Assembly: GCA_963701185.1 (NCBI GenBank)
Contig: OY969569.1
Coordinates: 795,548-859,547, forward strand
From: Candidatus Gottesmanbacteria bacterium
Lineage (GTDB): Bacteria > Patescibacteriota > Microgenomatia > UBA10105 > UBA927
DNA: 64,000 bases
Direction: 5' to 3'
Part shown: positions 22,470 through 56,258 of the stretch, piece by piece
Layout of the letters: every line of letters starts with the position of its first letter
How positions within the stretch are numbered: position 1 is the first letter of the stretch
Translations under genes and position numbers: made by a program
Notes under the pieces: model-generated
Told to the model about the DNA's origin: nothing
The model's input: only the letters and a program-made list of their open reading frames with translations
Databases searched by the model: none

Positions 22470-22471
22470 GC

Positions 22472-23062: not shown

Positions 23063-23162
23063 CCAAGCAGTTTATAAATGTATAATATATTTATAGTATA
23101 ATTTGAATTCGAAGTCAACGAAGTTGAGGCAACGAAGATTTTATACGTAGTTAATAGAAAAT

Positions 23163-29136: not shown

Positions 29137-30243
29137 ATGAATATTTCAATTCTCCAAGAAAACCTACTAAAAGCACTCACGCGAACGGGCAGAATCGTTG
29201 CACAAAAAACCCAATTGCCCATCATGCAGAATGTGCTTCTTGCGACGGATGACGCGCGACTCAAAATTGTTGCAACCACCATGGAAACGACAGAGGTTGT
29301 GTGGGCGGGCGCCAAGGTGGAAAGCGAAGGGGGGATATGTGTCTCTTCGAGACTGCTGACTGATCTTGTGATGTCTCTCCCTCAGGATACCATCCATATG
29401 GTGGCCAGAGAGGGGTCTCTTCATGTGAGGTGTAACGGCGTCAACGCGACCATTCCCGGCGTGCCCGCGTCCGAATTCCCTCCTGTTTCTTCCCTGAAAA
29501 AGAAAACAGGAATGAAGCTGGAAAAAACGACGTTTCTGGGCGCGCTCACCGGCGTGCTGTTTGCGGCCGCCACGGACGAGGGGAGGCCGCTTCTGACCGG
29601 CGTCAAAATCGCAACCGGCGACGGATCGGCGCTGTTTGCGGCCACGGACGGGTACCGCCTGTCCATGAAAAAAGTCGCGTCGGGAAAGTTTGGAGATATT
29701 CATTTGGTGATTCCTGCGCGGGCGCTGTCGGAGGTTGTGAAGGTGAGCCAGGAAGAAAAAGAAGTAGGCGTCGTAGAGATGGTAGAGACAGAAGAAGGGC
29801 AGATGGTCTTTACGATTGGAGACACGGAGATCCACACAAGGCCGATTGCCGGCGAATATCCCGATATCGAAAAAATTGTCCCTGCGCGGCACAATACGCG
29901 GGTATTGGTTGATAAAACAAGCCTCCTGCGCGCGGTCAAGTCTGCCTCTATATTTGCCCGGGACAACGCAAACATTCTCCGGCTTCATATTGAAAATCAG
30001 AAAATAATTGTGTCGGCCAACACTCCGCAGGTCGGGGAAAATCATGTGGAGGTGGAGGCCAAAGTGGACGGCGACGGGGGAGACATCGCCTTCAACAGCA
30101 GGTTTTTGCTGGAGTTCCTCAACGGGTTTGCCGGCGAAGAGCTTTTGTTTGAAATGACGGGGTCATTAAACTCCGGAGTCTTCCGCCCCGTGAAGGACGA
30201 CTCCTATCTTCACATCATTATGCCGGTGAGAGTTCAGAGTTGA
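29137..30243 (+). CDS. dnaN: DNA polymerase III beta sliding clamp
   Basis: 368 aa. 'MNISILQENLLKALTRTGRIVAQKTQLPIMQNVLL' plus the three-domain length. Canonical position after dnaA. Confidence 0.85.
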   Translation: MNISILQENLLKALTRTGRIVAQKTQLPIMQNVLLATDDARLKIVATTMETTEVVWAGAKVESEGGICVSSRLLTDLVMSLPQDTIHMVAREGSLHVRCNGVNATIPGVPASEFPPVSSLKKKTGMKLEKTTFLGALTGVLFAAATDEGRPLLTGVKIATGDGSALFAATDGYRLSMKKVASGKFGDIHLVIPARALSEVVKVSQEEKEVGVVEMVETEEGQMVFTIGDTEIHTRPIAGEYPDIEKIVPARHNTRVLVDKTSLLRAVKSASIFARDNANILRLHIENQKIIVSANTPQVGENHVEVEAKVDGDGGDIAFNSRFLLEFLNGFAGEELLFEMTGSLNSGVFRPVKDDSYLHIIMPVRVQS

Positions 30244-31229
30244 ATGGGTTCAGCCGGGATCAGCCAGAGAAACAGCGTTGCTTTTTGGATGGAGCCGGTA
30301 TTCGCTACCCCTGTTCCGGTCATGTAGATGGCGGGTAGCAGCAGGTTCTTCTGCGGCGCATAGACGATGGCGCTCTCCTCTATAACAAAGCGAGAAAAGC
30401 CGGGAATTTCTCCCTGCTCGGGCGTCTGTGGGTTGTGCGTATCCAAAAGCGTCCCTCGCCCCGCGGCAAGATTTTCAAGAATCTGATCGCCCGTCAAAAG
30501 CGGCACTGCGGCTCCCGCCTGAAATGACGCAGGCGGCGGGACAATGTTTGCAAAACGGATGATGCCGCCGCTGTCGGCGATGACGGAAACGGGCTCAATA
30601 CTTAAGTCGGGCGTCAACAGCGGGTAGGACGCCACGGTATAGGAATAGAAGTAATTTTTAAATGATGTCGGGGAGGGCGTGTCCAGTACGAGGAGTCCGT
30701 CAAAAGGGCCGCTTGTTGTTCCTGCGGCTTGTATGGAAAGGTTTGGTGTCGCAGGAACGAGGGTCTGTAAAAATTGCCGTACGGCGGCGTCCTGTGTGAT
30801 CGTATTTGGAGCCTGTTTGCTCTTTACCTGGCGGAAGGTGACAGAAATTATCCCGTTTGTTTGAGTGACCGCAAGGGCAGCCTCATCCGGCCGGGACCAC
30901 GTTTTGGTATATGAGCCGCCGCGGATAAGCGTGCTTGGGGTAGCGTCCAGGTCAAGGGCGGCAGCGGCGTTTCCGGCAGTTTTTTCAACAGATGAAAGAG
31001 GCGCCGGCTGAAACGTATATATCGGAAGCGATGCGGGAATGGTGGGAGGCGCGGAGAATGAGAACGCGACCTTTGCCGGCTGAGTAAATATGCCAGTCGG
31101 CCCGGGCGCGGCAAGTGTCGGTTCGGGGTGGGAGGAAGGGGGAGGCGCGGACTGACGCACAACAAGCGCCAGCACGGCGGCAACACCGACGATAAAAATA
31201 ATCCCAACAAACAGTAGTTTTTTATTCAT
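30234..31229 (-). CDS. hypothetical exported protein (last gene of the T4SS-like operon)
   Basis: N-terminal anchor 'LLFVGIIFIVGVAAVLALVV', then a Pro-rich stretch. Lies directly downstream of the M23 peptidase gene. Confidence 0.4.
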   Translation of the reverse strand: MNKKLLFVGIIFIVGVAAVLALVVRQSAPPPSSHPEPTLAAPGPTGIFTQPAKVAFSFSAPPTIPASLPIYTFQPAPLSSVEKTAGNAAAALDLDATPSTLIRGGSYTKTWSRPDEAALAVTQTNGIISVTFRQVKSKQAPNTITQDAAVRQFLQTLVPATPNLSIQAAGTTSGPFDGLLVLDTPSPTSFKNYFYSYTVASYPLLTPDLSIEPVSVIADSGGIIRFANIVPPPASFQAGAAVPLLTGDQILENLAAGRGTLLDTHNPQTPEQGEIPGFSRFVIEESAIVYAPQKNLLLPAIYMTGTGVANTGSIQKATLFLWLIPAEPIQL

Positions 31230-31230
31230 A

Positions 31231-33273
31231 CTATTTTCTCCCCGTGGTTATCGCCGTTGCCGGACACGCCTTTGTGCATCCTGACACATTTGATACACAG
31301 CCGTTAATCGCTTCGGGCGACAGCTTTGGGTTCCCGGTGGGCACAAAATCCAGAACGTTGCCGCCCGAAAGTACGCCAAAGTGCAGATGGGTGCCTGTGG
31401 AGTTTCCCGTCTGATCCATCCACCCCAACTGCGCGTGCGCGTCAACGTGTTGTCCTGCCCGTACCGCAATGGCACTCTCCAGATGGCCAAAAATGAGCGT
31501 GTACCCATCGTCTGTTTTTAGAATAACATGATTGCCGTACCCTGCATATGCCGGGCTTCCGCCGCATGTGTTGCCGGGGCGCCCGGAATTGTTTGAACAC
31601 CCCCCATAGGCCTCAATGACGGTTCCTGCCCTCGGTGTGTAGACGGGGCCTCCGGAAAAACTGGCAATATCAATGCCGTTTGCCGCCGATCCCGCCGCAT
31701 GTGATGTTCTGGCGGTACAATGTGCCGCAGTGCGCGGCCCCTGGGAAATGTAGCCGCTTGCCGGCCAGCGGCAATCGCCGGAACAGGCAGTAAACTTGCA
31801 CTGCGGATTATCGGGCGTCAGTTGGCAATTGACGACTGGGCCGCCCTCCATGCCGCCCTCGGCGCTTGTGGCAATCGACGTGTCGATCATGGACTGGTTA
31901 AATGCGGGGAGATTTAAGAGGGGGAATATCGGAAGGAAGAAAACAAGGACAACGCCCGCCCCGACAACAAGAATCAGGTTGTCTTCGGGGTTTTTGCTGT
32001 TGCCCATAAACAGAAGGCTTTTGAAGACGGAGACGGCTTTATTAACCGCCCCTTTGAGAAGATCCGCCCCGATCATTATCAATGCGCCCACGCCGCCCGT
32101 GGCGGCCCCGGTAGCCGCCTCCAATCCCAGTTTTGTTACCCCGCTGACCGCCGCCTTTTTTACCCCTGCCTTAATTCCTGCCCGTATGGCATAATTGGCG
32201 CCCGTCCAAACGAGCCGCCGGCCGTAACCCAGGACGACCGGACTGTAACAAGGGATATTGCCCACAACGACCCCCTGCGATGCGACGAGCCGGTATGTTT
32301 CGATATAGGTAATGACGCGTTCGGTTGCCGGACCGCGGAACACCGTTGTGGCGACATCGGAAACGAGGGCGGTAAATTTGGATGTAACTTTTAGCGCGCT
32401 TTTCTGGTCGCTCATCATGCGGTTGGCGTCAGTCTGCAGCGCCGTAAACCAGGAAGAATTTACAAAATCTGCCCCCCACCTGTCCGTCATCGTTCCCATG
32501 ACGGTTTGCGGCAGCGCCTCGGGGTGATTGACAATAGTAGTCAGCGGCTGCAGGAGAATTTTATTGACGACCGCTTCTTTGGCGGCGAGGGGTACGACAG
32601 CGTCCAGCACGGACGCAACACTTTTTTGAAAATCATTGGACGCAAGTATGGAAAAAGATTGTGGGGGCGGAAATGTGCCGGCGGGGGAGGAGAGAACCTT
32701 CGCAGCCTCAGTTGCTTCAACCGCGCGGGGAACGAGCTCTTTGATTTCGCGGTCCGGCTGTTCGGAAGCAAACGAAGCCAGCGCGTGAAAAACGAGCGCT
32801 TTTTCTTCCGGCGGCCCGGGGTAACGGATCGCGGCGCTGATGGCGCCCTGTATCCGCTCCGGTGATACCGGAGCGCCCTCCCGTTCCGGCGGCACGGGCG
32901 CCCGCATTTCGGGGAGCGGTCCATTTGATTTTTTTGCGTTTTCTTTTAGCGCCTCAACGAATTTTTTTGACGCCGTTGCCGCATTGACCCTTTGCTCTTT
33001 TGCCGCGGCAAACTCGCGGTCAAACTCCTCAACCAGTTCGTTAATCTTGGGGTTGATATTTCGCTGGATCCCGTCGGTTTCAGCGGCCGGCATTGTTATT
33101 TCAAAAAAGCGCAGGAACGCCTCGGTTGGCTCTCTGAGAAAAGGCCACGATCCAAAAGGGTTTGCCTCCGGATATTTATTAAAAAACCCTTCAAGCGTTT
33201 CCGGATCCTCCTGGAGCTTCAGCAAGCACCCGAGCGCCCGTTCGATTTCTTGTGATGATGCAAATTCTGCCAT
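31231..33273 (-). CDS. T4SS-associated membrane protein with a C-terminal M23 (lysostaphin-type) peptidoglycan peptidase domain
   Basis: About 420-aa N-terminal region, a TM (LILVVGAGVVLVFFLPIFPLL), then an M23 domain ('PRAGTVIEAYGG...GYGNHVILKTDDGYTLIFGHL...GNSTGTHLHFGV') with the HxH zinc motif. Confidence 0.65.
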   Translation of the reverse strand: MAEFASSQEIERALGCLLKLQEDPETLEGFFNKYPEANPFGSWPFLREPTEAFLRFFEITMPAAETDGIQRNINPKINELVEEFDREFAAAKEQRVNAATASKKFVEALKENAKKSNGPLPEMRAPVPPEREGAPVSPERIQGAISAAIRYPGPPEEKALVFHALASFASEQPDREIKELVPRAVEATEAAKVLSSPAGTFPPPQSFSILASNDFQKSVASVLDAVVPLAAKEAVVNKILLQPLTTIVNHPEALPQTVMGTMTDRWGADFVNSSWFTALQTDANRMMSDQKSALKVTSKFTALVSDVATTVFRGPATERVITYIETYRLVASQGVVVGNIPCYSPVVLGYGRRLVWTGANYAIRAGIKAGVKKAAVSGVTKLGLEAATGAATGGVGALIMIGADLLKGAVNKAVSVFKSLLFMGNSKNPEDNLILVVGAGVVLVFFLPIFPLLNLPAFNQSMIDTSIATSAEGGMEGGPVVNCQLTPDNPQCKFTACSGDCRWPASGYISQGPRTAAHCTARTSHAAGSAANGIDIASFSGGPVYTPRAGTVIEAYGGCSNNSGRPGNTCGGSPAYAGYGNHVILKTDDGYTLIFGHLESAIAVRAGQHVDAHAQLGWMDQTGNSTGTHLHFGVLSGGNVLDFVPTGNPKLSPEAINGCVSNVSGCTKACPATAITTGRK

Positions 33274-33277
33274 AGCC

Positions 33278-35176
33278 TTATACCTTTTCTACGGTAAATA
33301 TCGGGCGGGAGCTTTTATCTTCTTCGGTTATCATGGTTGGTTTTTCCTGCGGCGCGGTAGCCTTTATCTGAACCTGTTTTTCTAATTCCTGTGGTTTAGT
33401 TGTGGCAAGCGCGTGTTCTTCAGGTGAAGAAATGACCCTAATGGCCGCGTGGGCCGGTCCGGCAAAAAACAACCCCTCGCCGATATCGGCAGACAAGAGA
33501 AGGTGCTGTTCCCCCTCGGAGAGATAGAAGACATCAGCGACCTTGTCGATGGCGGCGGACGACTGTTTAAGCAGTATCTGAACACTGCTGTTTTGAATGA
33601 TGGATTTTCCGAGGTCAACGGTTAAAAAATCTTCGACATCCTGAGTAATGGTCGTGAGACCGAGATAATATTTGCGCGCTCGTTTGGCAATAGAATTGAG
33701 GAATGCCCCGGAATCAGGATATTTCATCATGTACCACGCCTCGTCAACGATGAGGATCCGGCGTTTGGCGTCGCGGCGTATTTTGGTCCAGATATAGTCA
33801 AGGATAAGGTACATGGCGATGGGCCGCAGCTCATCCTCCAAATCCCGGATGGAGAATACCGTGAGCTGGTTTCGTATTTCCACGTTGGTCTGCCGGTCAA
33901 AAATCCCGACCAGACTCCCTTTGACGAATTTTTCTATGCGGTCGGCAAGACCCCGCGCAGTCGGATCTTCCATACCGGTAAGGGCTTTATACAAATCTTC
34001 CATGAGCGGCGGCTCGCGGGTCTGGGTGGCGGGATCCGGCGTAATGCCTTTTTGTTTGTAGGTAAGGATCAGGGCCCGGTCAAGGAGGGCATCTTCCGTG
34101 GGAGTGAGCTTTCCCATGACAACGCGGAAAAATCCGTGCAGGGACAATATCTTTTGGTTGAGCTCGCTTTCCCCCCCTGCGCCTTTCGTTTGGGTGAACA
34201 AAGACAGGTCAAACGGATTGATTTTTGTCGTTGAGCCGAAGTGGAAGCGGATGTATTCGCCGCCTAAGGCGTGGGAGAGTGATTCGTATTCTGATTCCGG
34301 ATCGATGACGATGACCTCCGTGTCGAACATAAGACTGCGCATAATTTCCAGTTTCACCATGTACGATTTTCCAGAACCGGATTTTCCGAAGACCACCGTA
34401 TTTGCATTCTCTAAGGTAAACCGGTCAAAAATAACAAGGCTGTCATTATGTTCGTTGATGCCGTACAGAACCCCTTCATTGGCGGTGAGCTCCGATGTCG
34501 TAAACGGAAATGTGGTGGCAAGGGACGTGGTATCCATATTCCTGGTGATAACGAGCCGGTCGCGCCCCATGGGGAGCGTCGTTTTGAAGCCTTCCTCCAT
34601 CTGCAGGATTGCGCGCTTGGTGATAATCAGAAGAGCCGCAAGGGCGGCTTCAACCTGTTTTGTCGTTTTATTGAGGTCCTCCAGATTTTTGGCAGGGACC
34701 GTGATATACAGGGCAAACTGAAAAAAGCGCTGGGAGCCCTTGGCCAGCTCCTGCTGGAGAGATACCGCATCTTCAAGCGCGACTTGAATGGAGGGCTCTG
34801 TTGCCCTTCCGCGCTTCATGTCCGACTGGATTGTGGCCTCCATTTCGCCGACCCTGCGCTTGAGGTTTTCCAACACCTCTTCGCTTTTAGTGGGATAGAC
34901 ATACATGGCAATATCCAGCGTGTGATTGAAAGAAATAAGCGGCTCCAGCCAATTGGCGGATACAAACCGCGGATACCCGGCAACGAAGAGCGTGCGGAAA
35001 TACCGGTCGCCGATTTTTATCGTATCAAAATCCACTTCAATTGCCGGCGGGGCGACGAGGTCTTTTATGGTCATGGGGCCCTGCCTGTCGGCAGGCAGGC
35101 CGCCGTCTCCGGTCGAGGCGGGCATGGGATTGATGAATTTTTTCACTGCAGATTGTACGCGTTTGGTTAGATCCAT
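33278..35176 (-). CDS. virB4: type IV secretion system ATPase VirB4/TraC/TrbE family
   Basis: Walker A 'VVFGKSGSGKSYMVK', Walker B 'ILIVDEAWYMM', 'LGLTTITQDVEDF'. About 630 aa, consistent with Gram-positive/CPR-type VirB4. Confidence 0.8.
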   Translation of the reverse strand: MDLTKRVQSAVKKFINPMPASTGDGGLPADRQGPMTIKDLVAPPAIEVDFDTIKIGDRYFRTLFVAGYPRFVSANWLEPLISFNHTLDIAMYVYPTKSEEVLENLKRRVGEMEATIQSDMKRGRATEPSIQVALEDAVSLQQELAKGSQRFFQFALYITVPAKNLEDLNKTTKQVEAALAALLIITKRAILQMEEGFKTTLPMGRDRLVITRNMDTTSLATTFPFTTSELTANEGVLYGINEHNDSLVIFDRFTLENANTVVFGKSGSGKSYMVKLEIMRSLMFDTEVIVIDPESEYESLSHALGGEYIRFHFGSTTKINPFDLSLFTQTKGAGGESELNQKILSLHGFFRVVMGKLTPTEDALLDRALILTYKQKGITPDPATQTREPPLMEDLYKALTGMEDPTARGLADRIEKFVKGSLVGIFDRQTNVEIRNQLTVFSIRDLEDELRPIAMYLILDYIWTKIRRDAKRRILIVDEAWYMMKYPDSGAFLNSIAKRARKYYLGLTTITQDVEDFLTVDLGKSIIQNSSVQILLKQSSAAIDKVADVFYLSEGEQHLLLSADIGEGLFFAGPAHAAIRVISSPEEHALATTKPQELEKQVQIKATAPQEKPTMITEEDKSSRPIFTVEKV

Positions 35177-35180
35177 AGGT

Positions 35181-35840
35181 TTAGGTTCCCACCGCCTTTT
35201 CGATATTTTCAGCGCTCACAATCGGCGCGCCCTGGTTATAGATTTCGTAAAACAGCCGCACGAGCCGCTCATTGGTTAATTGTTTTGCCGAGAGACCTAT
35301 GCGGTTGCAAAGCCGTATGATTTGGTCCCCTTTGGGGGTAAGGACAATTATGGCCCGTTCGAAAATATAGGGCCTCGGGTACGGGAGGCCCCGCCTTTTG
35401 GACCCGCCAAGAAGCACGTTGGCGCTTGCCCCCAGCTCCAGATATGAAAACGGTACGACAATATAAAACTTTTTATCCAGCACATCTTTCTCCTTGACGG
35501 TGGCCGCCACAAACAGGCGGTATCCGTGCATGGCAGCGGCAAGCTTCGGATTTTTTTGCGTTTTTTCCCTGTCCTCCAGCGTCCGGAGGTATGCCGTCAC
35601 GTCTTTGTGTTGGGTGCGGATCAAAATTTCAATCGGGAAGGAGAGCGAATTTAACAGACCCGCGTACGCGTAAATAATTGCATCCTGTTCCTTTTCGGAT
35701 AGCAATCCGAAATTAACCGCGGTCGCGGATATAACCATGGAGCAGGAGCCGTCGGCGTACATGACCAGACCATGGTCAATGGTTTCTATTTCCGTGAATA
35801 GCTGTGTTGAGGATCTGATGGGTACGATTGGGTCAGGCAT
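35181..35840 (-). CDS. hypothetical T4SS-operon protein
   Basis: ORF 35181..36053 trimmed to Met72 (MPDPIVPIRS) so it does not overlap the upstream gene ending at 35851. Located between the PrgI-like and VirB4 genes. Confidence 0.4.
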   Translation of the reverse strand: MPDPIVPIRSSTQLFTEIETIDHGLVMYADGSCSMVISATAVNFGLLSEKEQDAIIYAYAGLLNSLSFPIEILIRTQHKDVTAYLRTLEDREKTQKNPKLAAAMHGYRLFVAATVKEKDVLDKKFYIVVPFSYLELGASANVLLGGSKRRGLPYPRPYIFERAIIVLTPKGDQIIRLCNRIGLSAKQLTNERLVRLFYEIYNQGAPIVSAENIEKAVGT

Positions 35841-35850
35841 ATGGGTATAA

Positions 35851-37044
35851 CTATGTCGGTGCCCCGAACAATTCCTTCTCAAGCTTTGCCCGCGTGATTT
35901 CTTTTTCGGTTTTTGCAAAAATCTCAAGCGCCGGTACGATCGACCCGTTGAGGGTGATCTGGGCGCGGTCAAAGGTAAAGCGAAGCCGGGGGTCTTCCGT
36001 TTCCACAAAATAGATGCCGTTGGGAAGCTGGGTGGACGCCGCAAACTGGCCAAGGCGGTTGGTTTTGAGGGCCCGCAGCGGCATGCCGTCTTTGTCTTTT
36101 ACTGTTACCAGGACGCCGGGCAGCAAATTTTTGTCTTTGTCTTTGACGATTCCGGTGACGATGTTGGGAAATGTCGTGAGGCGTGGTAATCCCACTTTTG
36201 CCGCGCGTCCGGGACCTATGACCTGAATGGTGGGCATCTTCGCCTGCCCGGCGGGTGTTTGCGTAACGGTAGTAGTGGGAGGGTTATATTCAGGAGGGCT
36301 TTGAAGCGAACGGAGTTTGGCGAGTTCCGCCATCATCTTTTCCTGTTCGGCCAAGAGCTCGGTTAGCTGGGCCTGCAGTTCCGCGACACGCGATTCCGCC
36401 GCGGTTTTACTCTCCAATTCCGAGGTGAGTTTTTTGAGTTTGTCTTCCAGGGCTGATTCTTTTTGCTGGGTCTCTGTAAGCTCTTTTGAAACATTTGGTG
36501 CGGGTCTTACAATAGGCGGCGGAGAAAGGTCCATGTGCGGCACCGGCGCCGTCTTGGGTTTGGGCGCCCACAAATCGGCAAGCCGATCAGCGATGCCCTT
36601 TTTGGGAGCAGATACAGTTACGACGCCGGCAGTAGTAGCCGGCGGCGAAGGAACAAAAATATTCTGCAAAATATCTCCCTTTCGGGTTGGGGGAGATGCC
36701 GGGGCGGTTTGTGTTTTTTCCGGCACTGCGGGCCGGGGATTCTCGGTTTTTGGCCGGCTCCAGACATACTGCGTTGGGTTATAAATACTCTTGATAAACG
36801 AAAGGACCCATACATCCATAGGGCGTTCCTCAATCGGCACAAACGCGAGCCCGAATCCGGCAACCGCACTGGTGACCGCCAGCGGCAGGGTAATGAAAAA
36901 CGGCAAGGGCAGCTTGTACATGATGTAGGCTCCAATCGCTCCTCCGACCAAATACCCGAATTGTTTGAGGGTCATGTCGCCGATGAGGCGGAATTGAAAT
37001 GTCGTAACGTTTTGCGGGACAGGATGTTGTTCCATATATAACAA
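35851..37044 (-). CDS. PrgI/VirB3-like T4SS membrane protein with an extended Pro-rich/coiled-coil C-terminal region
   Basis: N-terminal 'FQFRLIGDMTLKQFGYLVGGAIGAYIMYKLPLPFFITLPLAVTSAVAGFGLAFVPIEERPMDVWV' is a PrgI-like two-TM module. Pro/Ala-rich linker, coiled coil, then a C-terminal globular part. Confidence 0.5.
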   Translation of the reverse strand: MLYMEQHPVPQNVTTFQFRLIGDMTLKQFGYLVGGAIGAYIMYKLPLPFFITLPLAVTSAVAGFGLAFVPIEERPMDVWVLSFIKSIYNPTQYVWSRPKTENPRPAVPEKTQTAPASPPTRKGDILQNIFVPSPPATTAGVVTVSAPKKGIADRLADLWAPKPKTAPVPHMDLSPPPIVRPAPNVSKELTETQQKESALEDKLKKLTSELESKTAAESRVAELQAQLTELLAEQEKMMAELAKLRSLQSPPEYNPPTTTVTQTPAGQAKMPTIQVIGPGRAAKVGLPRLTTFPNIVTGIVKDKDKNLLPGVLVTVKDKDGMPLRALKTNRLGQFAASTQLPNGIYFVETEDPRLRFTFDRAQITLNGSIVPALEIFAKTEKEITRAKLEKELFGAPT

Positions 37045-37190
37045 ACGACGAGCGTCGCTATAGTAATTATTCTAAAAGGTAATTTTGCATGGCGCAATAG
37101 TGCAAAGCGCATCAGGACCGTGAAAACTGAAAATTTTTCCGTGAAAATTTTCATCCCGAGCGAAGTCGAAGGATATGCTACAATGAGCGT

Positions 37191-37754: not shown

Positions 37755-37793
37755 AATTCTAAGTATTAAGTTTTGGGTACTTAGCATTTAAAT

Positions 37794-38549: not shown

Positions 38550-38587
38550 TTTGACTTTTCTTTAAAAAAATGGTATAAATTTGAACC

Positions 38588-39268
38588 ATGTCTAGATCAG
38601 AAAATGGAAAAGGTGTAACACCAAAAGAAAACACTATTTGGTATCAATCTCTTCAAAGAGCGGGTCTTGCGTTACGAGAACGGCGAATAGACACAGCTCT
38701 GAACGAACTGGAGTTTGCGAGTAACAACCGTCCAACCCAAAACAAAGATGAGCTGCCCGGATTTTTCTATGACCCTCAATATTCAATGTGTATTCCACAT
38801 GGTGTAGTGGGACTAGCGTATACCGCCGTCACAATTTATCAAGATACAGATGCCGCATACAGAATTCTTAATTTTGTAGAGGAAAAATGGGATGAAAAGG
38901 GAACTGCACTTGAAGATACCTGGTTTGAATTATCGAAAGAAGCAATAAAACAGAAGAGGTTTGAAGATGCATCTGTTTTTTTCCGTCGAAGCAGAGATGC
39001 CCATCGAACCCAATATCAAGAGCGTATTCCGTTTTTTGAATTGTGGAATTATTGTCGGTCATATATAAGAAATTGGTATACTGACAGACAATATGCAGAT
39101 GCTGCAGGCGCACTTTTCATGGTTGCACGAAACGGTAAAGATCCAGAGGTAGGTATGATGGCCGAACGATTAGCAAGGAAATTATTAGATGGGGATGCTT
39201 GGGCGGATTGGGAGGGTTTTCACAAAGCTATACGAGAATTAGACAAGGCATTGGGCGCTCCATGGTAA
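38588..39268 (+). CDS. hypothetical protein (first gene of the AT-rich island)
   Basis: 226-aa ORF, AT-rich. No recognisable domain. Confidence 0.35.
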   Translation: MSRSENGKGVTPKENTIWYQSLQRAGLALRERRIDTALNELEFASNNRPTQNKDELPGFFYDPQYSMCIPHGVVGLAYTAVTIYQDTDAAYRILNFVEEKWDEKGTALEDTWFELSKEAIKQKRFEDASVFFRRSRDAHRTQYQERIPFFELWNYCRSYIRNWYTDRQYADAAGALFMVARNGKDPEVGMMAERLARKLLDGDAWADWEGFHKAIRELDKALGAPW

Positions 39269-39351
39269 AGTGATGATATTAAACGCCGCTTGGCAATACT
39301 ACTGTAATGTAACCTTCGTCTTGCGCCCCACCTCCCACTAGCGATACAATC

Positions 39352-42300
39352 GTGGTATCTATGGCAGAAACAGAGCCGCCACCAAAGAAGAATGTTGAGC
39401 AGGAGCAAAAACCTCAAGAACAGACCCCTGAAGATAAAGCAGCGGAGGAATTAGGCAAACGTGCCCAAAAATCAACGCGGTATGAACGTCATAAGATAAA
39501 AGAACAACGGGAGAGAGCCGAAAAAGTATTCGAAAAACTAAAAAAGGGTGAAGTTCCAAAACTTGATTTGGAAAAAATGTCCCCTGCGGATATCAAAGAA
39601 GCCAAATCTATTATCGCCGACATAGAACGCGCCCACGAACAAAAGTGGCTTACCAAAGGCGAAATTCCAGATAACCCAATTGTATTAGATGTTGTTGCCC
39701 GCATCGCCAGTGCGCCTCAAGAGCTTCAGGATGACCCGAAATGGCTTATTGCCCAGGGACTTGAACTGCGGGAAGCGCAAAAAGGAAGTATGCCTGATGA
39801 TGTAAAGATTGCCATACAAAAAGTGAGTTATAGAATAAGGAATAGGGTTACAGAATTAACAGGTATAAATGAAGAAGACCGGCATGCCATTTTTCGCTCT
39901 TCATTTGATCCCGCGAAACTTACCAGCGTAACCCCGGAGCAAGCGGAAGTTGTTGAGGTGGCAGAATTTTATTTAAGCGAGTCTGGAAGCCCGGTTCGGC
40001 GCGGGTCGGGAACGCCAGAATTAATTACCCCAAGCGATTGGCTTTACAAAGGACAAACGACGGGAAACGCAGCTCTGGATAAGAAATTGGAGGAAATTAA
40101 TAATAGATATGCGAATGAACCACAGGCAGAATATCTTCAAGAAGCGCATCGTGAGCTTAAAGATATGAAACTTGCCGAAGCAGAACCATATCTCAGAACA
40201 ATCGAAAACACTTATAAAATCATGTCCGATGAGCAATTTAGGTTAACCCCCGCGGAAATCGAGAAAATTAAAAATCCTGACACACGCGACGAGGTTTTTT
40301 ACCGACGCATAGAAAAAATTTTGAATAAACCAAATAAAACATCTCGGGAAAGCATGGATCTCTACACACAAACAGCATTGGACTCATTTACGTATGGTGT
40401 AAGCAGAATGGAAAATGGTCGAAATCTCGTCGCTCACTTTGAAAACCTGCAAGAAGCGATTTTTGCGTTTCATGATATTGACTTTTATGCACGCAGCGCC
40501 GCCGGAGATGTAAAACCGTTTGTTGAGGCAGCATCATATTTCCAAAATTCATTCGCAATAGAAGCCATTAATGACCCGCTTGTGGAAGTGAGCATTCAGA
40601 GCTACGAGCAGGCACTCAAGATGATTCGGGACAATAATGACGGGTATATACCGCCATCGATGGTAAGTTACGATACGAATACCTACCAGAATTATTGGGA
40701 TGAACTTGCAAAGAAAATTCTGATAGAGAAAATAAAGGCGGGTTTAGTTCACGATTATGATCGCGACCCAAAAACAGGAACTCCTCTGAAAAATAATGAT
40801 GGCACACGGCGGTTTAAAGATGAGGCAATGACACTTGAAGAGCTCGGTTTAGATCCAAAAAGTAAGCTGAGCGTTGAAGATCAGAGAAATAAAACATTAC
40901 GTCTTATTGCCTCCATGCGTATGGCAAAAGGATTTGGGATCCTCGACATGAGGCTTTTGGAAATTTTTGCATTCTCCAAAACCCCCGGGTATTCCAATCC
41001 AGAATACGGAACGCAAGGACTAATATTCAGCAGTAAAGCATATGAAGGAATCGCGCGTTGGTTAAATCCCATGGCTGATTGGTTTGGCAAATTTAAAATG
41101 GGAGACACCATGTTTGCTCCATTCTTTGCGACACTCATAGGAATAAAACACAATGATCTTAAGGAATTTTTCTCATGGGATCAGGACCAGTGGAAACGTA
41201 TCACCAATATGGCGGCCAACGGAGAATTACAGGAATGGCTCCGGAATAAATTTCCGAAAGGTGGCGGACGACTTCACGATCTTGTTTCAATGTTTGCATT
41301 TAGCGGACGTTTCGGGCCGTTGTCAAAATGGGGAGAGTCAGATGTCACTTTGGGTTTTACTGATTTAGATCGTGAACGGGAAGGCGGCTCAATGAGGCTA
41401 TTTAAGGCCTCAAGGTGGGCAGAAGAGGAAGCCAGAAATCATTTTGATCCGGATAAGAAACTAAAAGAGTCGGAATGGAGAGTCATGAAGAACTCTGAAG
41501 AAGTTAAGAAGAAAATAGACGAATATGAAAAAGCATATAAAATTCACGTGTGGGTACAGACCGTCATGCGTAATCCAACCGGAGTAGCAGGCCATGTGCG
41601 TATGCAGACGCCAGAGAAATCTGGGGAAGCGCCGCATACGTATCTATACGGCGATGTTCATAAGCATGGTAATGAAAGAATGGCACGACATCTCAGGAAT
41701 GTGGTTATCCAAGAAGTGCTTGGGAATGACTATATTGTCGAGGGAAGAATTTTATTAAACGGAGAAATTCAATATGAGCCTGTAGAGAATGAACGATCTC
41801 CTGACGCAGCTAAACTTAATAAGATGGCCCGTATAGAACTTTTGGAGCGGGATGTCATGACGATCCAGCAGGCAGCGCTCTGCGGCGGCAGCGACAACAG
41901 ACCACGGGATATAAAATTAGAAACAGACTCGAAGCGTATCGAGGGCGATGAAGTGATTGCAGGAGAAACCATTACGCAAGAAAAGCGTCGTGAAGATGCA
42001 AAACAATACATTACCCGCGTGCAGACATATATGTTGGGGAACAAATTGTCAGCAAAAGATTGGCAAAAAAAACTTGGGGGGGATTGGGATGATACATTGG
42101 ACAGAATTAAGATGGAAGATTACTCGTCGGATAGTGTGAGCGTTCCGGTCGGAAGCGGGAAAAGTAAATTAGTATTGAAGATTGTGGACACAATAACGGA
42201 GAAAAATCCCACTCCCGTAACTAAGATGCTCGCATCTGTTCGTGGCATAGATGAAGATGCCAAGGTAGACTATGGGAACCCGTTATTGTCGGAAGAGCTT

Positions 42301-42930
42301 TTGAAAGTGATTTCGCCTTCACATATGGGTCTTGAGGACGTGCAATGGCATTATATAGATATTGCTCCTTTGGGTGAGCGGCATTGGGCGAGACGAGCGA
42401 ACGATTTGCGGGCACGGTCAGAAACAGATGCGGCGCTGATAAAAAGTTTAGACACAATGCGCCCACACCCTGATCTTAAAGAGATCGGAAAAGCGCTTGA
42501 GGAAGTGTACAACGCAGAAAAACAGCACGATCCAAATGAGGCGCACAGGTTTGTGTATTTATGGTCGCGGGGAATGGGAGAGATGTACAGACAAAGATTT
42601 TGGGCGAAAATTCCTTTTCTTGGAAGACTTATTTCTCGAATGAATCCATCTTCTATTGCTGCGCAAGTGTATGGTCCCGAGCATGGAGCTTCGTGGAGTG
42701 CGAATAATGAGAGGGAATTTGTGGAAGCAGTCCAACAATCAACAAAACTACCATATCAGGAAATCGATAGGTTGGGAAATAAGCATACATATAACATACA
42801 TAGTTTGGAAAAAGAACTAGGTGCGACCCGGAGAGTCGTGATAATGGAAATGATCGGATTGGGGGTGTTTATTGCGATTGCGGCAACGATATTGGCAGCG
42901 GGCACAAAATCGCTGGAAGATAAAGATTAA
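39352..42930 (+). CDS. giant hypothetical protein (1192 aa) with a C-terminal TM anchor
   Basis: Single uninterrupted ORF, highly charged (K/E/D/R-rich). No P-loop or other signature found. C-terminal hydrophobic helix 'VVIMEMIGLGVFIAIAATILAAG'. Its A+T content is above the surrounding core genes. Confidence 0.55.
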   Translation: MVSMAETEPPPKKNVEQEQKPQEQTPEDKAAEELGKRAQKSTRYERHKIKEQRERAEKVFEKLKKGEVPKLDLEKMSPADIKEAKSIIADIERAHEQKWLTKGEIPDNPIVLDVVARIASAPQELQDDPKWLIAQGLELREAQKGSMPDDVKIAIQKVSYRIRNRVTELTGINEEDRHAIFRSSFDPAKLTSVTPEQAEVVEVAEFYLSESGSPVRRGSGTPELITPSDWLYKGQTTGNAALDKKLEEINNRYANEPQAEYLQEAHRELKDMKLAEAEPYLRTIENTYKIMSDEQFRLTPAEIEKIKNPDTRDEVFYRRIEKILNKPNKTSRESMDLYTQTALDSFTYGVSRMENGRNLVAHFENLQEAIFAFHDIDFYARSAAGDVKPFVEAASYFQNSFAIEAINDPLVEVSIQSYEQALKMIRDNNDGYIPPSMVSYDTNTYQNYWDELAKKILIEKIKAGLVHDYDRDPKTGTPLKNNDGTRRFKDEAMTLEELGLDPKSKLSVEDQRNKTLRLIASMRMAKGFGILDMRLLEIFAFSKTPGYSNPEYGTQGLIFSSKAYEGIARWLNPMADWFGKFKMGDTMFAPFFATLIGIKHNDLKEFFSWDQDQWKRITNMAANGELQEWLRNKFPKGGGRLHDLVSMFAFSGRFGPLSKWGESDVTLGFTDLDREREGGSMRLFKASRWAEEEARNHFDPDKKLKESEWRVMKNSEEVKKKIDEYEKAYKIHVWVQTVMRNPTGVAGHVRMQTPEKSGEAPHTYLYGDVHKHGNERMARHLRNVVIQEVLGNDYIVEGRILLNGEIQYEPVENERSPDAAKLNKMARIELLERDVMTIQQAALCGGSDNRPRDIKLETDSKRIEGDEVIAGETITQEKRREDAKQYITRVQTYMLGNKLSAKDWQKKLGGDWDDTLDRIKMEDYSSDSVSVPVGSGKSKLVLKIVDTITEKNPTPVTKMLASVRGIDEDAKVDYGNPLLSEELLKVISPSHMGLEDVQWHYIDIAPLGERHWARRANDLRARSETDAALIKSLDTMRPHPDLKEIGKALEEVYNAEKQHDPNEAHRFVYLWSRGMGEMYRQRFWAKIPFLGRLISRMNPSSIAAQVYGPEHGASWSANNEREFVEAVQQSTKLPYQEIDRLGNKHTYNIHSLEKELGATRRVVIMEMIGLGVFIAIAATILAAGTKSLEDKD

Positions 42931-42933
42931 ATA

Positions 42934-44418
42934 TTATGGATGGCTTCCGCCACCCCCTCCCTTTCCCTTATTTATCCATTTTCCTACCTGACTGACCATT
43001 GCTGAGCCATAGTAAAACTGGGATGCGGTTCCCATAGTGGTTTGAACAGCGCCGCCCAAGGGTGAGAATATTGCGCTGGGGCCAGCACTGACCATAGGTT
43101 TGGCCTTGAGCGCCTCTTTCAGTGCCTTACCAATCGAAGGAATGGCAAATAGAATGCCCAGTGAGATAAGTGTTGAGAGTGACGTCGTGTTGAATGAGAT
43201 CGCCGATAAATTTGGAGCCCAAAGTGATTTATGGGTGTCGGCAAAGTTCGCAAATACCGCCGCAAGCATGAAGAAAACAACACCAAGCGGAAACACAGCA
43301 ATATTTGCTATAAGATTATTGATCCACGACCCGAATGAGTTGGTTCCTGGAATTGCTTCCATCAGGATTTGTACCGGGCCAAAGAGAAGTGCAAGTACGA
43401 TTTGAATGTATGCTCCGACGAAAAAGATGAGGAGACGTATAAACAAAAATAGCATGGCAAGGGATAGAATGAATTCCAAAACAGGCATCGAAAGAGCGGC
43501 AATTCCTCCTGCTACTACCATCGGGCCGGCTACCCCCGCTGAAATTGCCGTAATGGCAACCGCCGGAACAATCAACAATGCTCCGAGACCTAGCCCTGCA
43601 AGCAATTCCGTTCCGACCCCTACGGGTATGCCCAATATTTTTAAAACGCTCACGTTCCAAGTCGCCTGGATGGTGTTAGCAGCCAAGGTTCCCTGTGTAA
43701 AGAATTTCAGCTGTGTATCTAGCCCCCAGATGTTCCAGATACTAGGGACTGCCGGTAACAGTCCTGAAGAAACAAATAAACCTACGGCAAGATACATGAT
43801 CAAATACATGACGTCTATGAGAAGCCCGACAATAGCATATGAGAATGTTATAAGAAGGAGGGTAAGTACAATTCTCGGGAGGGCATTCTGGACGGTGACG
43901 ACGGTTTTTGGATCTATTTTTTTTCGGAACATGACCATGAATCCGATGACGATCATAACAACGGCCATAAGAAAGTAGGCGATGTTTCTGAATATTTTCC
44001 AGAGAGGTAGAAGAGCAGAGAATCCGGAAAATCCAATGCCTTGAGCGTGTACCTGTTTAGGAAAAAAGCCAAGAGATTGACCGGTATCTTCTACCCAGTA
44101 GGCAATGCTTGAGGGTGGCGTCGTATAGACGCCCGCTATAACGCCGCTTATAAGGGTTAACGAGCTTTTACCGTAATAAAATGCGCTGTTTGGATCTTTG
44201 CTGCAGCCGGCAATCATGCAGGTTGCCGTGTTCATGTACGAGGCCTGGGTATTGACGGTATAGACCTCTTTACTCATCTGCCCCGCTTTGGATTTCTGGT
44301 CCACGATTGCGCCAAACTCTTCGGCGCTTGGCATCGGATTAAACTCCGCGTGTGCGGGCGGCACAAAGACCAATCCGACGAGAATGAAGATGAGAAATAA
44401 AAACGCGGCGTGCTTCAT
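42934..44418 (-). CDS. VirB6/TrbL-like polytopic T4SS membrane protein
   Basis: Signal peptide plus a periplasmic N-domain, then 7 or more TM helices. Encoded immediately downstream of six VirB2-like pilin genes, in the VirB6 position. Confidence 0.5.
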   Translation of the reverse strand: MKHAAFLFLIFILVGLVFVPPAHAEFNPMPSAEEFGAIVDQKSKAGQMSKEVYTVNTQASYMNTATCMIAGCSKDPNSAFYYGKSSLTLISGVIAGVYTTPPSSIAYWVEDTGQSLGFFPKQVHAQGIGFSGFSALLPLWKIFRNIAYFLMAVVMIVIGFMVMFRKKIDPKTVVTVQNALPRIVLTLLLITFSYAIVGLLIDVMYLIMYLAVGLFVSSGLLPAVPSIWNIWGLDTQLKFFTQGTLAANTIQATWNVSVLKILGIPVGVGTELLAGLGLGALLIVPAVAITAISAGVAGPMVVAGGIAALSMPVLEFILSLAMLFLFIRLLIFFVGAYIQIVLALLFGPVQILMEAIPGTNSFGSWINNLIANIAVFPLGVVFFMLAAVFANFADTHKSLWAPNLSAISFNTTSLSTLISLGILFAIPSIGKALKEALKAKPMVSAGPSAIFSPLGGAVQTTMGTASQFYYGSAMVSQVGKWINKGKGGGGGSHP

Positions 44419-44457
44419 AGATATATTATGCTGACTCCATTGGCACGAGTCAATGTG

Positions 44458-44763
44458 TTAATTGCCGGGGATCGTAAATTGCGTGACATTGACGCCGGTA
44501 AACAACTGGATGGTGCGTAAGATAAGATACGCAATGACGATAACGACAACGCCGGTGATAGCTGCCGTCAGCGTGCCGCGGGCTTTCTCGAGTTTTTTTT
44601 GGTCCCCGCCGGAGAATAAAAAACCGTACCCGCCGATTATGAACATGATAAATAATGCAACGCCTATGAGTGCGGTAAGCGCCTGCACGACACCCGTAAA
44701 TATCGGTTCAAAACATTGAAGTGTCGCTGCGCCCCCAATCGTACAGTTCTGCCAGGTCCACAT
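44458..44763 (-). CDS. VirB2/TrbC-like T4SS pilin paralogue 1
   Basis: TM1, then 'GGYGFLFSGGDQKKLEKARGTLTAAITGVVVIV', then TM2. Same architecture as the other paralogues. Confidence 0.6.
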   Translation of the reverse strand: MWTWQNCTIGGAATLQCFEPIFTGVVQALTALIGVALFIMFIIGGYGFLFSGGDQKKLEKARGTLTAAITGVVVIVIAYLILRTIQLFTGVNVTQFTIPGN

Positions 44764-44814
44764 ATGGAATCATTATCGCGCAGATGGCGGCAACAGGCAA
44801 GAGGGTGTCGCGCT

Positions 44815-45147
44815 TTAATTAAAAGGCTTTGGGAACGTGAGCGTCCCGCCGATAATCGATATGCCCAGGAAATTCTGGACGAGAATCATAATCGCCCACG
44901 CGGCTCCGACAATGATAAGTCCGACAATCGCATGGGTAATTTTATTGCGCGCAGCTTCCATGCCGGCTTTGTCTCCGCCGGAGGTGATCCATTGGATGCC
45001 GCCCATGATAAGGAAAAAGAATGCCAGGAGTGCCGCAACGATAAGAAGCACGCCGACGAGCGCACTGATGAGCTGACCGATATCACCGATTTTTATGTTC
45101 GCGGGTTGCGGGATTGTAATCTGTGCCTGTGCAAATACCTTTTCCAT
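44815..45147 (-). CDS. VirB2/TrbC-like T4SS pilin paralogue 2
   Basis: 'LIMGGIQWITSGGDKAGMEAARNKITHAIVGLIIVGAAWAI' is the core motif GG.QW.(T/S).GGD...A..I..AI.GL.I. Confidence 0.65.
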   Translation of the reverse strand: MEKVFAQAQITIPQPANIKIGDIGQLISALVGVLLIVAALLAFFFLIMGGIQWITSGGDKAGMEAARNKITHAIVGLIIVGAAWAIMILVQNFLGISIIGGTLTFPKPFN

Positions 45148-45222
45148 AATTCCTCCTTATTAACGACCGTGTTTTATTATATCCTTATTCTCATTGTTGC
45201 GCAACTATCTTTCGCTTGTCAA

Positions 45223-45579
45223 CTATTGATTAATGCTCGGGATGGTAAGTTTTGTGATCTCTATGCCGAAAAATTGTCCGACGAGCGTCATGAGCGCATA
45301 GGCTGCCGCCACGATCACCAGCCCCATAATGGCGTTGGTAATACCGCTGCGCGCTTTCTCCAGCGCCTGCTTGTCTCCGCCTGCAGTGATCCATTGGATG
45401 CCGCCGATAAGAAGCAGCATAAACGTGAGTAAGAATCCCGCGATAAACAGTGCGCCGACCAAATTACTGATGAGCTTTCCCAGCGACGCGCCGCCCTGAG
45501 AAACATCGGGGTTTGGTCCGCCTCCGAGAGACGGGGGTAAAACGGGGTTTCGGATCTGAGATAATATTCGTGTATTCAT
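45223..45579 (-). CDS. VirB2/TrbC-like T4SS pilin paralogue 3
   Basis: 'LLIGGIQWITAGGDKQALEKARSGITNAIMGLVIVAAAYAL'. Confidence 0.65.
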   Translation of the reverse strand: MNTRILSQIRNPVLPPSLGGGPNPDVSQGGASLGKLISNLVGALFIAGFLLTFMLLLIGGIQWITAGGDKQALEKARSGITNAIMGLVIVAAAYALMTLVGQFFGIEITKLTIPSINQ

Positions 45580-45581
45580 TT

Positions 45582-45974
45582 TTACTGAATTTTTAATTGC
45601 TGAATAATGACTCCGGGATTGCCGACAAGAATATCATATCCGAAGAATTGACCGACGACCGCGATCATGATCCAGGCGGCAATGATGATGACGAGCCCGA
45701 AAAATCCGTTCATAATCCGCTGCCGGGCCGTTGTAAGCTTTTTTGTGTCTCCGGCGCTGGAAATCCATTCATAGCCGCCAAACAGGAGCTGGAACATAAA
45801 CCAAATACTGCCGGCTATCGTCAGAAATCCGACGATGGAGGATATGACTCCGGTTACCTTGGTCAGCGCCAGTACGCCGCCTGCCTGACCACCGAAATTT
45901 AGCGCCCCAAACGGCCCCAAGCCGGATCCTCCGATGTTTCCAAGCCCCTGTCCTGTTTGTGCAAGTAGCGCCAT
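45582..45974 (-). CDS. VirB2/TrbC-like T4SS pilin paralogue 4
   Basis: Gly-rich N-terminus, then 'LLFGGYEWISSAGDTKKLTTARQRIMNGFFGLVIIIAAWIMIAV'. Confidence 0.6.
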   Translation of the reverse strand: MALLAQTGQGLGNIGGSGLGPFGALNFGGQAGGVLALTKVTGVISSIVGFLTIAGSIWFMFQLLFGGYEWISSAGDTKKLTTARQRIMNGFFGLVIIIAAWIMIAVVGQFFGYDILVGNPGVIIQQLKIQ

Positions 45975-45977
45975 AGA

Positions 45978-46352
45978 TTATGGTGTGTAAATCTTCGGAT
46001 TTAAGATATACCCCGCATCGCCGAACAATAAGTATCCGAATAGTGCGGCGAGGGCGAATGAGCTGACCACAAGAATGAGTCCCAAGAGCGACTGCCAGAT
46101 TTTTCCCCATGCCTTTTGCACGACTTTTGAGTCTCCTCCGGCGCCCATAAATTGGAATCCGGCGAGAATAAGATTGATGAATGCAAACAATCCGGCGACC
46201 ACAAAGACCAGCCGGAGAATGTTTGTGAGAAAGAGGATGAGTCCGCCGCCCTGTGCGGCAGTTATGCCCCGGTATGCTTTCGGGAGCGGATTGTCAACCG
46301 TCCCGACGATGCTTGATGCGCCCTGTGCAAATATTTTTTCCATGCCAAACAT
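45978..46352 (-). CDS. VirB2/TrbC-like T4SS pilin paralogue 5
   Basis: 'LILAGFQFMGAGGDSKVVQKAWGKIWQSLLGLILVVSSFALAAL'. Confidence 0.6.
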   Translation of the reverse strand: MFGMEKIFAQGASSIVGTVDNPLPKAYRGITAAQGGGLILFLTNILRLVFVVAGLFAFINLILAGFQFMGAGGDSKVVQKAWGKIWQSLLGLILVVSSFALAALFGYLLFGDAGYILNPKIYTP

Positions 46353-46354
46353 AA

Positions 46355-46711
46355 TTATTTCAGACCGACCATCTGTTTTAATATGTCAGCGCCCGTGATG
46401 GTGGCGATGACCTGGACGATAAGAACTGATAAGACGACGATCAAAAGCCCGATGACCGCCCCGGTTACCGCCCTTTTGCTCTGTTCGAGTTGTTTGGCGT
46501 CCTCGGATCCTGCTCCCACTATAACGCCCAGTCCCCCTAAAATCAATAAAACAAAGCTGATAACCCCGGCCAGTACGACGGCATTTTTGACAATCACGGA
46601 TACGATTGAGCCGAAGTCGCTAAATGTCGCGGCGGGCGCGAATATGGTTTTGATGTCGACAGCGTACACCATTCTCAGATCATTGTATGGGTAAATGGAG
46701 GTTACTGTCAA
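46355..46711 (-). CDS. VirB2/TrbC-like T4SS pilin paralogue 6
   Basis: 'LLILGGLGVIVGAGSEDAKQLEQSKRAVTGAVIGLLIVVLSVLIVQV'. Confidence 0.6.
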   Translation of the reverse strand: MTVTSIYPYNDLRMVYAVDIKTIFAPAATFSDFGSIVSVIVKNAVVLAGVISFVLLILGGLGVIVGAGSEDAKQLEQSKRAVTGAVIGLLIVVLSVLIVQVIATITGADILKQMVGLK

Positions 46712-49370: not shown

Positions 49371-49405
49371 GTATTAATTAAAACTTAGCACTTAGAATTT
49401 AAACT

Positions 49406-50455: not shown

Positions 50456-50512
50456 TTTGAAAATTAAGAAAATAAAAATTGATTAAAAATTGAAAATTTT
50501 AAATTAAAAATT

Positions 50513-51950: not shown

Positions 51951-51959
51951 GAATTCTAT

Positions 51960-56253: not shown

Positions 56254-56258
56254 AAAAG

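Follow-up and report, generated by a model that had tools for sequence, protein, structure and literature searches.

A chromosomal Patescibacteria-type type IV secretion system with an array of pilin-like genes in Candidatus Gottesmanbacteria

What purpose could be served by a type IV secretion system (T4SS) whose genes adjoin dnaA/dnaN and which comes with eight diverged pilin-like genes? The question is raised by a stretch of 64,000 nt, hereafter the window, from Candidatus Gottesmanbacteria (Microgenomatia; contig OY969569.1, assembly GCA_963701185.1). The locus is a chromosomal Patescibacteria-type T4SS with a pilin-like array, and the system is probably central to life on the host cell. 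Its kind was already described in 2023-2025 as MPF_FATA-like, near oriC, relaxase-free and equipped with pilin arrays (Wang 2023; Quinonero-Coronel 2025). A survey across Patescibacteria reported a VirB4 clade related to MPF_FATA, TrsD and PrgI adjoining virB4, M23-containing hydrolases and VirB2-like pilins as further parts, and a position close to dnaA/dnaN in Microgenomatia (PMC12102498). The reading favoured on balance is that of a vertically inherited T4SS of this type, derived from the conjugation machinery of monoderm bacteria (MPF_FATA) and serving host contact or exchange. The parts can be identified with high confidence, while filament formation, cargo and direction of transport are proposed with about even confidence. 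The window was compared with 80 Microgenomates loci related through VirB4, cited below by L numbers; L083-L086 are four other Gottesmanbacteria genomes.

The virB4 operon beside dnaA/dnaN

A preliminary description of the window had recognized a Gram-positive or CPR-style T4SS consisting of a VirB4 operon that includes an M23 hydrolase and of a separate pilin array with a VirB6-like protein. This picture is supported by profile searches, predicted folds and synteny, and every open reading frame (ORF) it named was found where it had been placed. The operon (37044..30234) comprises five minus-strand genes spaced by 1-4 nt, the last of which shares 10 nt with the end of dnaN; the family matches below bear out its earlier annotation.

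35851..37044, minus strand: PrgI/VirB3-like membrane protein, 397 aa from TTG (PF12666, E 1.5e-9; PF13620, E 1e-4)
35181..35846, minus strand: TrsD/TraC-like protein, 221 aa (NCBIfam VirB4 N-terminal and TrsD matches)
33278..35176, minus strand: VirB4 ATPase, 632 aa (PDB 4ag5, E 8e-47; NF045971; PF19044/PF12846)
31231..33273, minus strand: bitopic cell-wall hydrolase, 680 aa (PF01551 M23, E 1.3e-18; one transmembrane (TM) helix, 433-451)
30234..31229, minus strand: membrane-anchored extracellular protein, 331 aa (N-terminal TM anchor)

The VirB4 ATPase reaches 401 bits against the NCBIfam model NF045971 of the CD1110 family (cutoff 325, model positions 185-730) and matches Thermoanaerobacter VirB4 (PDB 4ag5). 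Its Walker A (264-271) and Walker B (474-481) motifs are both intact. It is 89% and 85% identical to VirB4 proteins from Ca. Gottesmanbacteria metagenome-assembled genomes and 63-80% identical to those of many other Microgenomates; family score and identity (63-89% across the 80 loci) place it with the monoderm/FATA-type VirB4 of the Patescibacteria clade. Compared with the CD1110-type model, it lacks ~185 positions at the N-terminus. The preceding gene had been listed as a 220-aa unknown. The ORF exists, with 221 codons, and its product is no longer without a family. To judge from the alignments it belongs to the TrsD type and is homologous to the N-terminal domain of VirB4, here encoded as a separate protein. 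It matches VirB4 models over their N-terminal parts (NF045975 positions 105-233, E 7.5e-6; CD1110 positions 11-72), and that same part is missing from the VirB4 of the window; it also aligns with TrsD, and its orthologues (68-93% identical) carry PF26593 (TraC-like). The alignment with TrsD was obtained with NCBIfam (NF041427, E 0.0024) and with hhalign, where a profile of 59 sequences of the family met pSK41 TrsD with a probability of 83.5 (E 8e-6, 173 columns). The start of the gene is the ATG at 35846; the listed TTG at 36053 would overlap prgI.

The PrgI-like protein begins with the two-helix PrgI domain, from which a Pro-rich linker with coiled coil leads to a conserved beta-sandwich of the CarboxypepD_reg-like type at the C-terminus. 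Its gene probably starts at the ATG at 37035 rather than at the listed TTG. In 78 of the 80 related loci the two ends of the protein are conserved, with a variable linker between them. The TrsD-like gene is likewise found in 78/80, and prgI, trsD and virB4 stand together in as many.

The 680-aa protein has no signal peptide. A cytoplasmic domain of ~430 aa is followed by the TM helix and by an extracellular M23 peptidase with the residues H525..D535, H597 and H629xH631. The possibility of a degenerate, non-catalytic M23 domain was dismissed, since in this family HxxxD is represented by an H-x(5-10)-D variant and both the H and the HxH are retained. As an operon-encoded peptidoglycan hydrolase with its catalytic residues intact, the protein falls into the VirB1-type functional class. 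It is an analogue only and not a member of the VirB1 family, since it is neither an SLT nor a CHAP homologue. In L002 (OY970230, ~11950-14380), the orthologue keeps the cytoplasmic N-domain and the TM helix and carries Peptidase_C39_2 in place of M23; the wall-cutting head therefore appears, from its predicted domains, to be exchangeable on a conserved T4SS-associated anchor. The N-terminal domain alone gave no match in Pfam, and neither this domain nor the PrgI extension matched pSK41 TrsF, TrsG or TrsH by hhalign. The 331-aa protein, earlier called a secreted unknown, turned out to be held in the membrane by an N-terminal TM helix. It consists of three helix-plus-sheet modules with a YycI/YycH/PepSY-like fold and is a candidate regulator or partner of the hydrolase.

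The pilin paralogues and the VirB6-like protein

The pilin genes and the VirB6-like gene form a second module, ~6 kb from the virB4 operon, and a further pair of pilin genes lies beyond it.

42934..44418, minus strand: VirB6-like polytopic membrane protein, 494 aa (predicted fold and gene context)
44458..46672, minus strand: pilin array, six VirB2-like paralogues (PF18895 matches, core alignment, positional orthology with L083-L086)
44458-44763, minus strand: pil1
44815-45147, minus strand: pil2
45223-45579, minus strand: pil3
45582-45974, minus strand: pil4
45978-46352, minus strand: pil5
46355-46672, minus strand: pil6 (extended to 46711 in the ORF list)
55912..56933, minus strand: second pilin locus, pil7 (113 aa, 55912-56253) and pil8 (224 aa) (PF18895, 41.6 and 25.4 bits)

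All eight small ORFs match PF18895 (T4SS_pilin). Five exceed the gathering score, at 30.6-41.6 bits, and the other three fall short of it (24.1, 25.4 and 18.6). A local hidden Markov model of the pilin core retrieves exactly these eight in the 64 kb, so that the six tandem and two further VirB2-like genes of the preliminary description stand. The core holds two TM helices and the conserved residues G50, G58, D59 and G76, with a mean identity of 29% among the eight (range 16-58%). The two hydrophobic helices are joined by a short charged GGD-K loop, a predicted VirB2-type topology. Eight diverged paralogues had been thought unusual. In this clade they are not: 441 arrays of 2-11 genes, with a mean identity of ~25%, were found in 383 Patescibacteria assemblies and are commonest in Microgenomatia and Saccharimonadia (PMC12102498).

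The N-termini of these proteins differ. Six of the eight leave no room for a Sec signal peptide, and most of the leaderless ones (44815-46672, 55912-56253) keep a short N-terminal M-x-K-[IV]-[FL]-A-Q, which resembles the A-x-A end, followed by Q, of full signal peptides in other Microgenomates pilins. This short AQ terminus may represent a shortened leader, or else a site of processing. Pil8 has a full Sec signal peptide and a duplicated Cys-rich module ahead of its pilin core. Pil1, with two conserved cysteines, always adjoins the VirB6-like gene. Cys-rich pilins are also encoded directly 3' of virB4 in L064, L067, L069 and L078, where the order is virB4, Cys-rich pilin, pilin, VirB6-like protein.

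Small two-TM proteins could be membrane-embedded parts of a channel, or unrelated hairpin proteins, instead of filament subunits. This would accord with their lack of similarity to solved pilins, with the missing signal peptides and with the fact that monoderm T4SSs are normally pilus-free. The PF18895 matches argue otherwise, as does the VirB2-type topology. The genes are also strictly linked to virB4 and the VirB6-like gene, and the proteins weakly match the pilin-like family NF045849 of the Mycoplasma integrative and conjugative element (ICE), below the family cutoff (E 1e-5 to 0.015); pSK41 too encodes a CagC-family pilin-like protein, ahead of TrsC. Such a non-filament identity is considered unlikely. 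Some results do weigh against the favoured reading. The TrbC/VirB2 profile PF04956 gave a best E of 0.23 on the pilins, a profile of 25 pilins showed no sequence relation to the solved VirB2, TraA and TrbC pilins, and no VirB8-like or VirB5-like part was found in the window, the fold of the sole VirB8 candidate, the 331-aa protein, not being NTF2-like.

The low mutual identity of the paralogues could also reflect a phase- or antigen-variable surface repertoire, of which one or few pilins would be used at a time to escape recognition by host or phage. Bartonella and Anaplasma provide precedents, and promoter-like sites inside the module speak for it as well. The genes had been said to read through into the VirB6-like gene; gaps of 39-75 nt with such sites instead precede pil2 and the 494-aa gene (weaker consensus matches at 45222-45193 and 44453-44425). 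The array itself tells against variation, for no repeats or invertible segments were seen in it and each of its six pilins matches best at the same array position in L083-L086, with 100-193 bits on the diagonal, 28-97 bits off it and identities of 50-86%. Against L086 the arrayed pilins are 71-86% identical, pil2 being the most conserved. Since the best matches fall at the same position in four genomes, the paralogues are, as far as such comparison can tell, ancient and individually maintained, which favours distinct structural roles over antigenic switching. In Southlakia, moreover, the pilin genes of the array are essential (PMC12857230; PMC10633639). A variable repertoire is accordingly judged quite improbable, and the antigenic diversification proposed earlier is not favoured.

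The array is preceded by a near-consensus match to a sigma-70-type promoter, TTGACA-18-TACAAT (11/12; 46682..46711, minus strand), which, like the weaker ones, was obtained by consensus matching only. The start of pil6 is most likely the ATG at 46672 and not the TTG at 46711, because its orthologues begin with MERVFAQ and because this TTG belongs to the -35 hexamer of the promoter match. The match ends 9 nt upstream of the ATG and thus implies a nearly leaderless transcript.

The 494-aa protein has a signal peptide, an ectodomain of ~120 aa and at least six TM helices. Its designation as VirB6-like holds in terms of fold and gene context and finds no backing in sequence models. Pfam, including the TrbL/VirB6 profile PF04610, matched neither the protein nor 46 homologues, the family profile matched nothing in the PDB, and hhalign found no match with pSK41 TrsL or TrsF. 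An attempt to reach PF04610 by way of more remote family members did not succeed, since all of the best 150 among 3,555 hits were close ones. Similarity of the C-terminal part to the Mycoplasma ICE TM proteins NF045889/NF045848 is marginal (NCBIfam, E 0.07-0.13). The predicted fold, in turn, ranks R388 VirB6 and Legionella DotA first, these being the top structural matches by two methods; in Foldseek, TrwI chains come first with a probability of 0.99 and an E of only 0.08-0.8. A VirB6 fold and a polytopic topology are hence predicted for a protein encoded alongside T4SS genes. In 43 of the 80 loci its family is encoded 3' of pilin genes and no more than 10 kb from virB4; in four the module is fused to the virB4 operon. 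The family counts 3,555 representatives at 50% identity and has no Pfam annotation, which probably explains why the survey called VirB6 "scarce" in Microgenomatia (PMC12102498).

Coupling protein, mobility and related systems

Is the locus part of a conjugative element? Statements on the absence of a relaxase, VirD4, VirB11 and VirB9/10 refer here to the 64-kb window and not to the whole genome. Within it, as reported earlier, no large ORF matched any of these in Pfam, nor did any match a relaxase family. A conjugative T4SS unites a mating-pair formation apparatus, a coupling protein and a MOB relaxase; the latter two were not found. The system is, in the window, chromosomal, relaxase-free and near dnaA/dnaN, like those of the Patescibacteria clade.

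The missing coupling protein is best understood from the relatives. A divergently oriented gene between nadD and prgI encodes a TrwB/VirD4-like ATPase of 725 aa in L083-L085 (16716-18893 in L083) and in no fewer than 32 of the closest loci; the protein has the domains DUF8128, DUF87, TrwB_AAD_bind and TraG-D_C and shows 66-84% identity among related loci. In the window the nadD-prgI interval measures 146 nt only (37045-37190), and tblastn with the relatives' 725-aa protein found no trace of it in the 64 kb. The gene is likewise missing between nadD and prgI in L001, L012, L036, L038 and L086. Among the best 120 homologues of the ATPase (at least 71% identity), none lies on the contig that bears the exact 331-aa protein of the window. 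This suggests that the coupling-protein gene was lost in the lineage; a diverged or relocated copy is possible. The earlier label of a minimal system without VirD4 thus describes this lineage and not the system as such, most close relatives encoding the ATPase directly upstream of prgI.

An ICE or integrated plasmid that moves DNA to other cells, or the remnant of one, would explain why VirB4 belongs to the CD1110 (CTn2-type) conjugation family, why the gene order mirrors the trs genes of pSK41 and why relatives have a VirD4/TrwB-like ATPase beside prgI. A tyrosine recombinase is also encoded in the window, at 2052-2912. It is XerC/D-like and lies 28 kb from the locus. Relaxase and coupling protein are not found, and relaxases are rare in Patescibacteria at large (109 in 103 genomes; PMC12102498). 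Finally, dnaN/dnaA lie downstream of the operon in 54-56 of the 80 loci. The locus adjoins dnaA/dnaN, has housekeeping genes around it and keeps this synteny across the whole class, so that its distribution is one of vertical inheritance and not of mobility. The values against L086 (VirB4 88%, TrsD-like protein 93%, pilins 71-86%) are read as purifying selection. A conjugative element is on these grounds most improbable. The split into two loci is lineage-specific too, other Microgenomates (L064, L067, L069 and L078) having the pilin and VirB6-like genes directly after virB4.

The closest likeness is with the T4SS of Ca. Southlakia epibionticum ML1 (SEML1_0006-0019), which is also chromosomal and of monoderm type, with VirB3/PrgI, TrsD, VirB4 and a peptidase-type hydrolase. 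A VirB6-like protein, an array of six or so diverged VirB2-like pilins and the absence of a relaxase are further shared with it and with the surveyed Patescibacteria, and the place near dnaA/dnaN with the surveyed Microgenomatia. Southlakia belongs to Saccharimonadia and not to Microgenomatia. The window differs by the distance of the pilin/VirB6 module from the virB4 operon, by a VirB6-like protein that escapes sequence profiles and by the absence of the coupling-protein gene neighbouring prgI in relatives, and it is known from its genes alone.

The MPF_FATA systems of pSK41/pGO1 (TrsB-TrsL) similarly encode a VirB3-like protein, TrsD and VirB4, then a membrane protein and a hydrolase, with a small pilin-like gene upstream; prgI-trsD-virB4-hydrolase of the window is collinear with TrsC-TrsD-TrsE...TrsG of pSK41. 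In contrast to the window, pSK41 has a relaxase, a VirD4 (TrsK), a topoisomerase and a TrbL-family VirB6 recognizable by sequence. Its hydrolase is of the CHAP type instead of M23, and it has one pilin-like gene instead of eight. The Mycoplasma ICE shows the trio Mbov_0395 (pilin-like), Mbov_0396 (TM protein) and Mbov_0397 (VirB4) in the same order. The VirB4 of the window matches its model NF045975 (E 3e-77), whereas the matches to the pilin and TM-protein models lie far below the family cutoffs, and the Mycoplasma element is mobile and has a coupling protein. With the Gram-negative VirB/R388 systems the locus shares the VirB6 fold, the VirB4 C-terminal domain and the hairpin topology of the pilins. 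Contrary to these it has no VirB5, VirB7-VirB10 or VirB11, its VirB4 N-domain is encoded separately, and its pilins and VirB6-like protein have no sequence-level similarity to their counterparts.

Neighbouring genes and the role of the system

Several genes around the two modules may be connected with the system.

39352..42930, plus strand: 1192-aa tail-anchored protein without known domain (C-terminal TM helix only; convergent with the VirB6-like gene)
46695/46734-47273, plus strand: extracytoplasmic function (ECF)-type sigma factor (Sigma70_r2/r4_2/ECF; divergent from the pilin array)
47345-47590, plus strand: conserved single-TM protein of 76-81 aa (divergent from the pilin array)
56944..58695, plus strand: SpoIID/LytB peptidoglycan hydrolase with an N-terminal coiled coil (PF08486, E 4e-18; TIGR02669, 94 bits)

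The 1192-aa protein has no match in Pfam, NCBIfam or the PDB, and its gene has a GC content of 0.43-0.45 versus ~0.52. The same slot in L083-L086 is taken by tail-anchored proteins of 1241-1430 aa with no detectable similarity to it. The occupants in L083, L085 and L086 share 21-27% identity and that of L084 matches none, while the genes around the slot are 71-96% identical across these genomes. The link with the T4SS is positional only. The locus could include an undescribed host-specificity module, in which this protein would act as an effector or contact determinant in an arms race, next to a fixed hetero-polymer of six non-interchangeable pilins, with mini-leaders instead of a Sec signal peptide, and a machine free of a coupling protein; so far-reaching a reading is doubtful.

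The sigma factor and the small TM protein are divergent from the array in all four related contigs and may be its regulators. The small protein is possibly anti-sigma-like; a Yip1 gene and a mevalonate operon follow. The promoter match at 46682-46711 overlaps the annotated 5' end of the sigma-factor ORF, the true start of which is probably near 46734. The SpoIID/LytB gene is divergent from pil8, also adjoins the pilin array in L078 and could encode a second wall-opening enzyme.

Further genes of the window deserve mention. A complete archaeal-type mevalonate cluster (48231-55820, plus strand), conserved beside the T4SS region in relatives, encodes HMG-CoA reductase, HMG-CoA synthase, thiolase, an OB-fold partner, GHMP kinases fused to NUDIX and a decarboxylase, and is followed by UppS. 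Upstream of dnaA, whose start overlaps its stop, lies a gene for an 893-aa SecA-derived protein (24846-27527, plus strand). It matches SecA models partly (114 bits, cutoff 862), as a divergent SecA paralogue, and did not turn up in the regions flanking the 80 related loci. Three consecutive proteins of 805, 196 and 503 aa (20052-24674, minus strand) could be assigned to no family, the first having a sub-threshold match to DUF7305. The only competence-related gene seen is ComFC-like, with a double zinc ribbon and a phosphoribosyltransferase domain (62941-63591, plus strand).

This last gene bears on a further explanation, by which the machine would import DNA or other nucleic acids, like ComB of H. 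pylori or archaeal Ced, and feed nucleotides to a cell unable to make them. The VirB4 has weak matches to CedB (E 2e-14) and CedD (4e-7), and the absence of relaxase and coupling protein from the window would suit import. One cultivated relative feeds on host RNA, and tubular structures that are possibly T4SS pili were seen at the parasite-host interface (bioRxiv 10.64898/2026.06.21.733656). The CedB match amounts, however, to 53 bits against a family cutoff of 700, and the ComFC-like gene lies 16 kb from the array and is unlinked to it in the relatives checked. In Southlakia epibionticum, transposon sequencing found the T4SS and its six-pilin array essential for epibiotic growth and the coupling protein not essential (PMC10633639; PMC12102498; PMC12857230), while loss of comEC abolishes competence and not viability (PMC12857230). 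The essentiality of the T4SS therefore does not lie in ComEC-dependent DNA uptake. Import is a possibility, though a rather unlikely one.

The favoured reading, a T4SS for host contact, would work as follows. The PrgI/VirB3-like and TrsD-like proteins would dock the VirB4 ATPase on the membrane, where the VirB6-like protein would provide the platform. The two-TM pilins would insert with both termini outside, and VirB4 would extract and polymerize them into a short pilus or tube. Its subunits would be of several kinds, each conserved in its own right, with one Cys-rich 'headed' pilin among them. The M23 endopeptidase, tethered to the membrane and perhaps assisted by the SpoIID-like enzyme, would open the cell's own peptidoglycan locally, restrained or positioned by its YycI/PepSY-like partner. 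The machine would serve contact and exchange with the host cell rather than plasmid conjugation, as a non-conjugative pilus or conduit, a function inferred from the gene set. The need of Southlakia for its T4SS and pilin array in epibiotic growth, and the possible T4SS pili seen between parasite and host, speak for this reading.

Overall, the window is a clean Microgenomatia example of a known system and not a new kind of system. It adds some details: a large VirB6-like family without Pfam annotation, a natural lineage without the neighbouring coupling-protein gene, in line with the dispensability of this protein in Southlakia, pilin paralogues that appear to be ancient fixed subunits and not a variable repertoire, and a hypervariable giant tail-anchored protein beside the machine. 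Patescibacteria account for much of the diversity of bacteria and spend their lives attached to other cells, and their T4SS is the first to be shown essential for the very bacterium that carries it.

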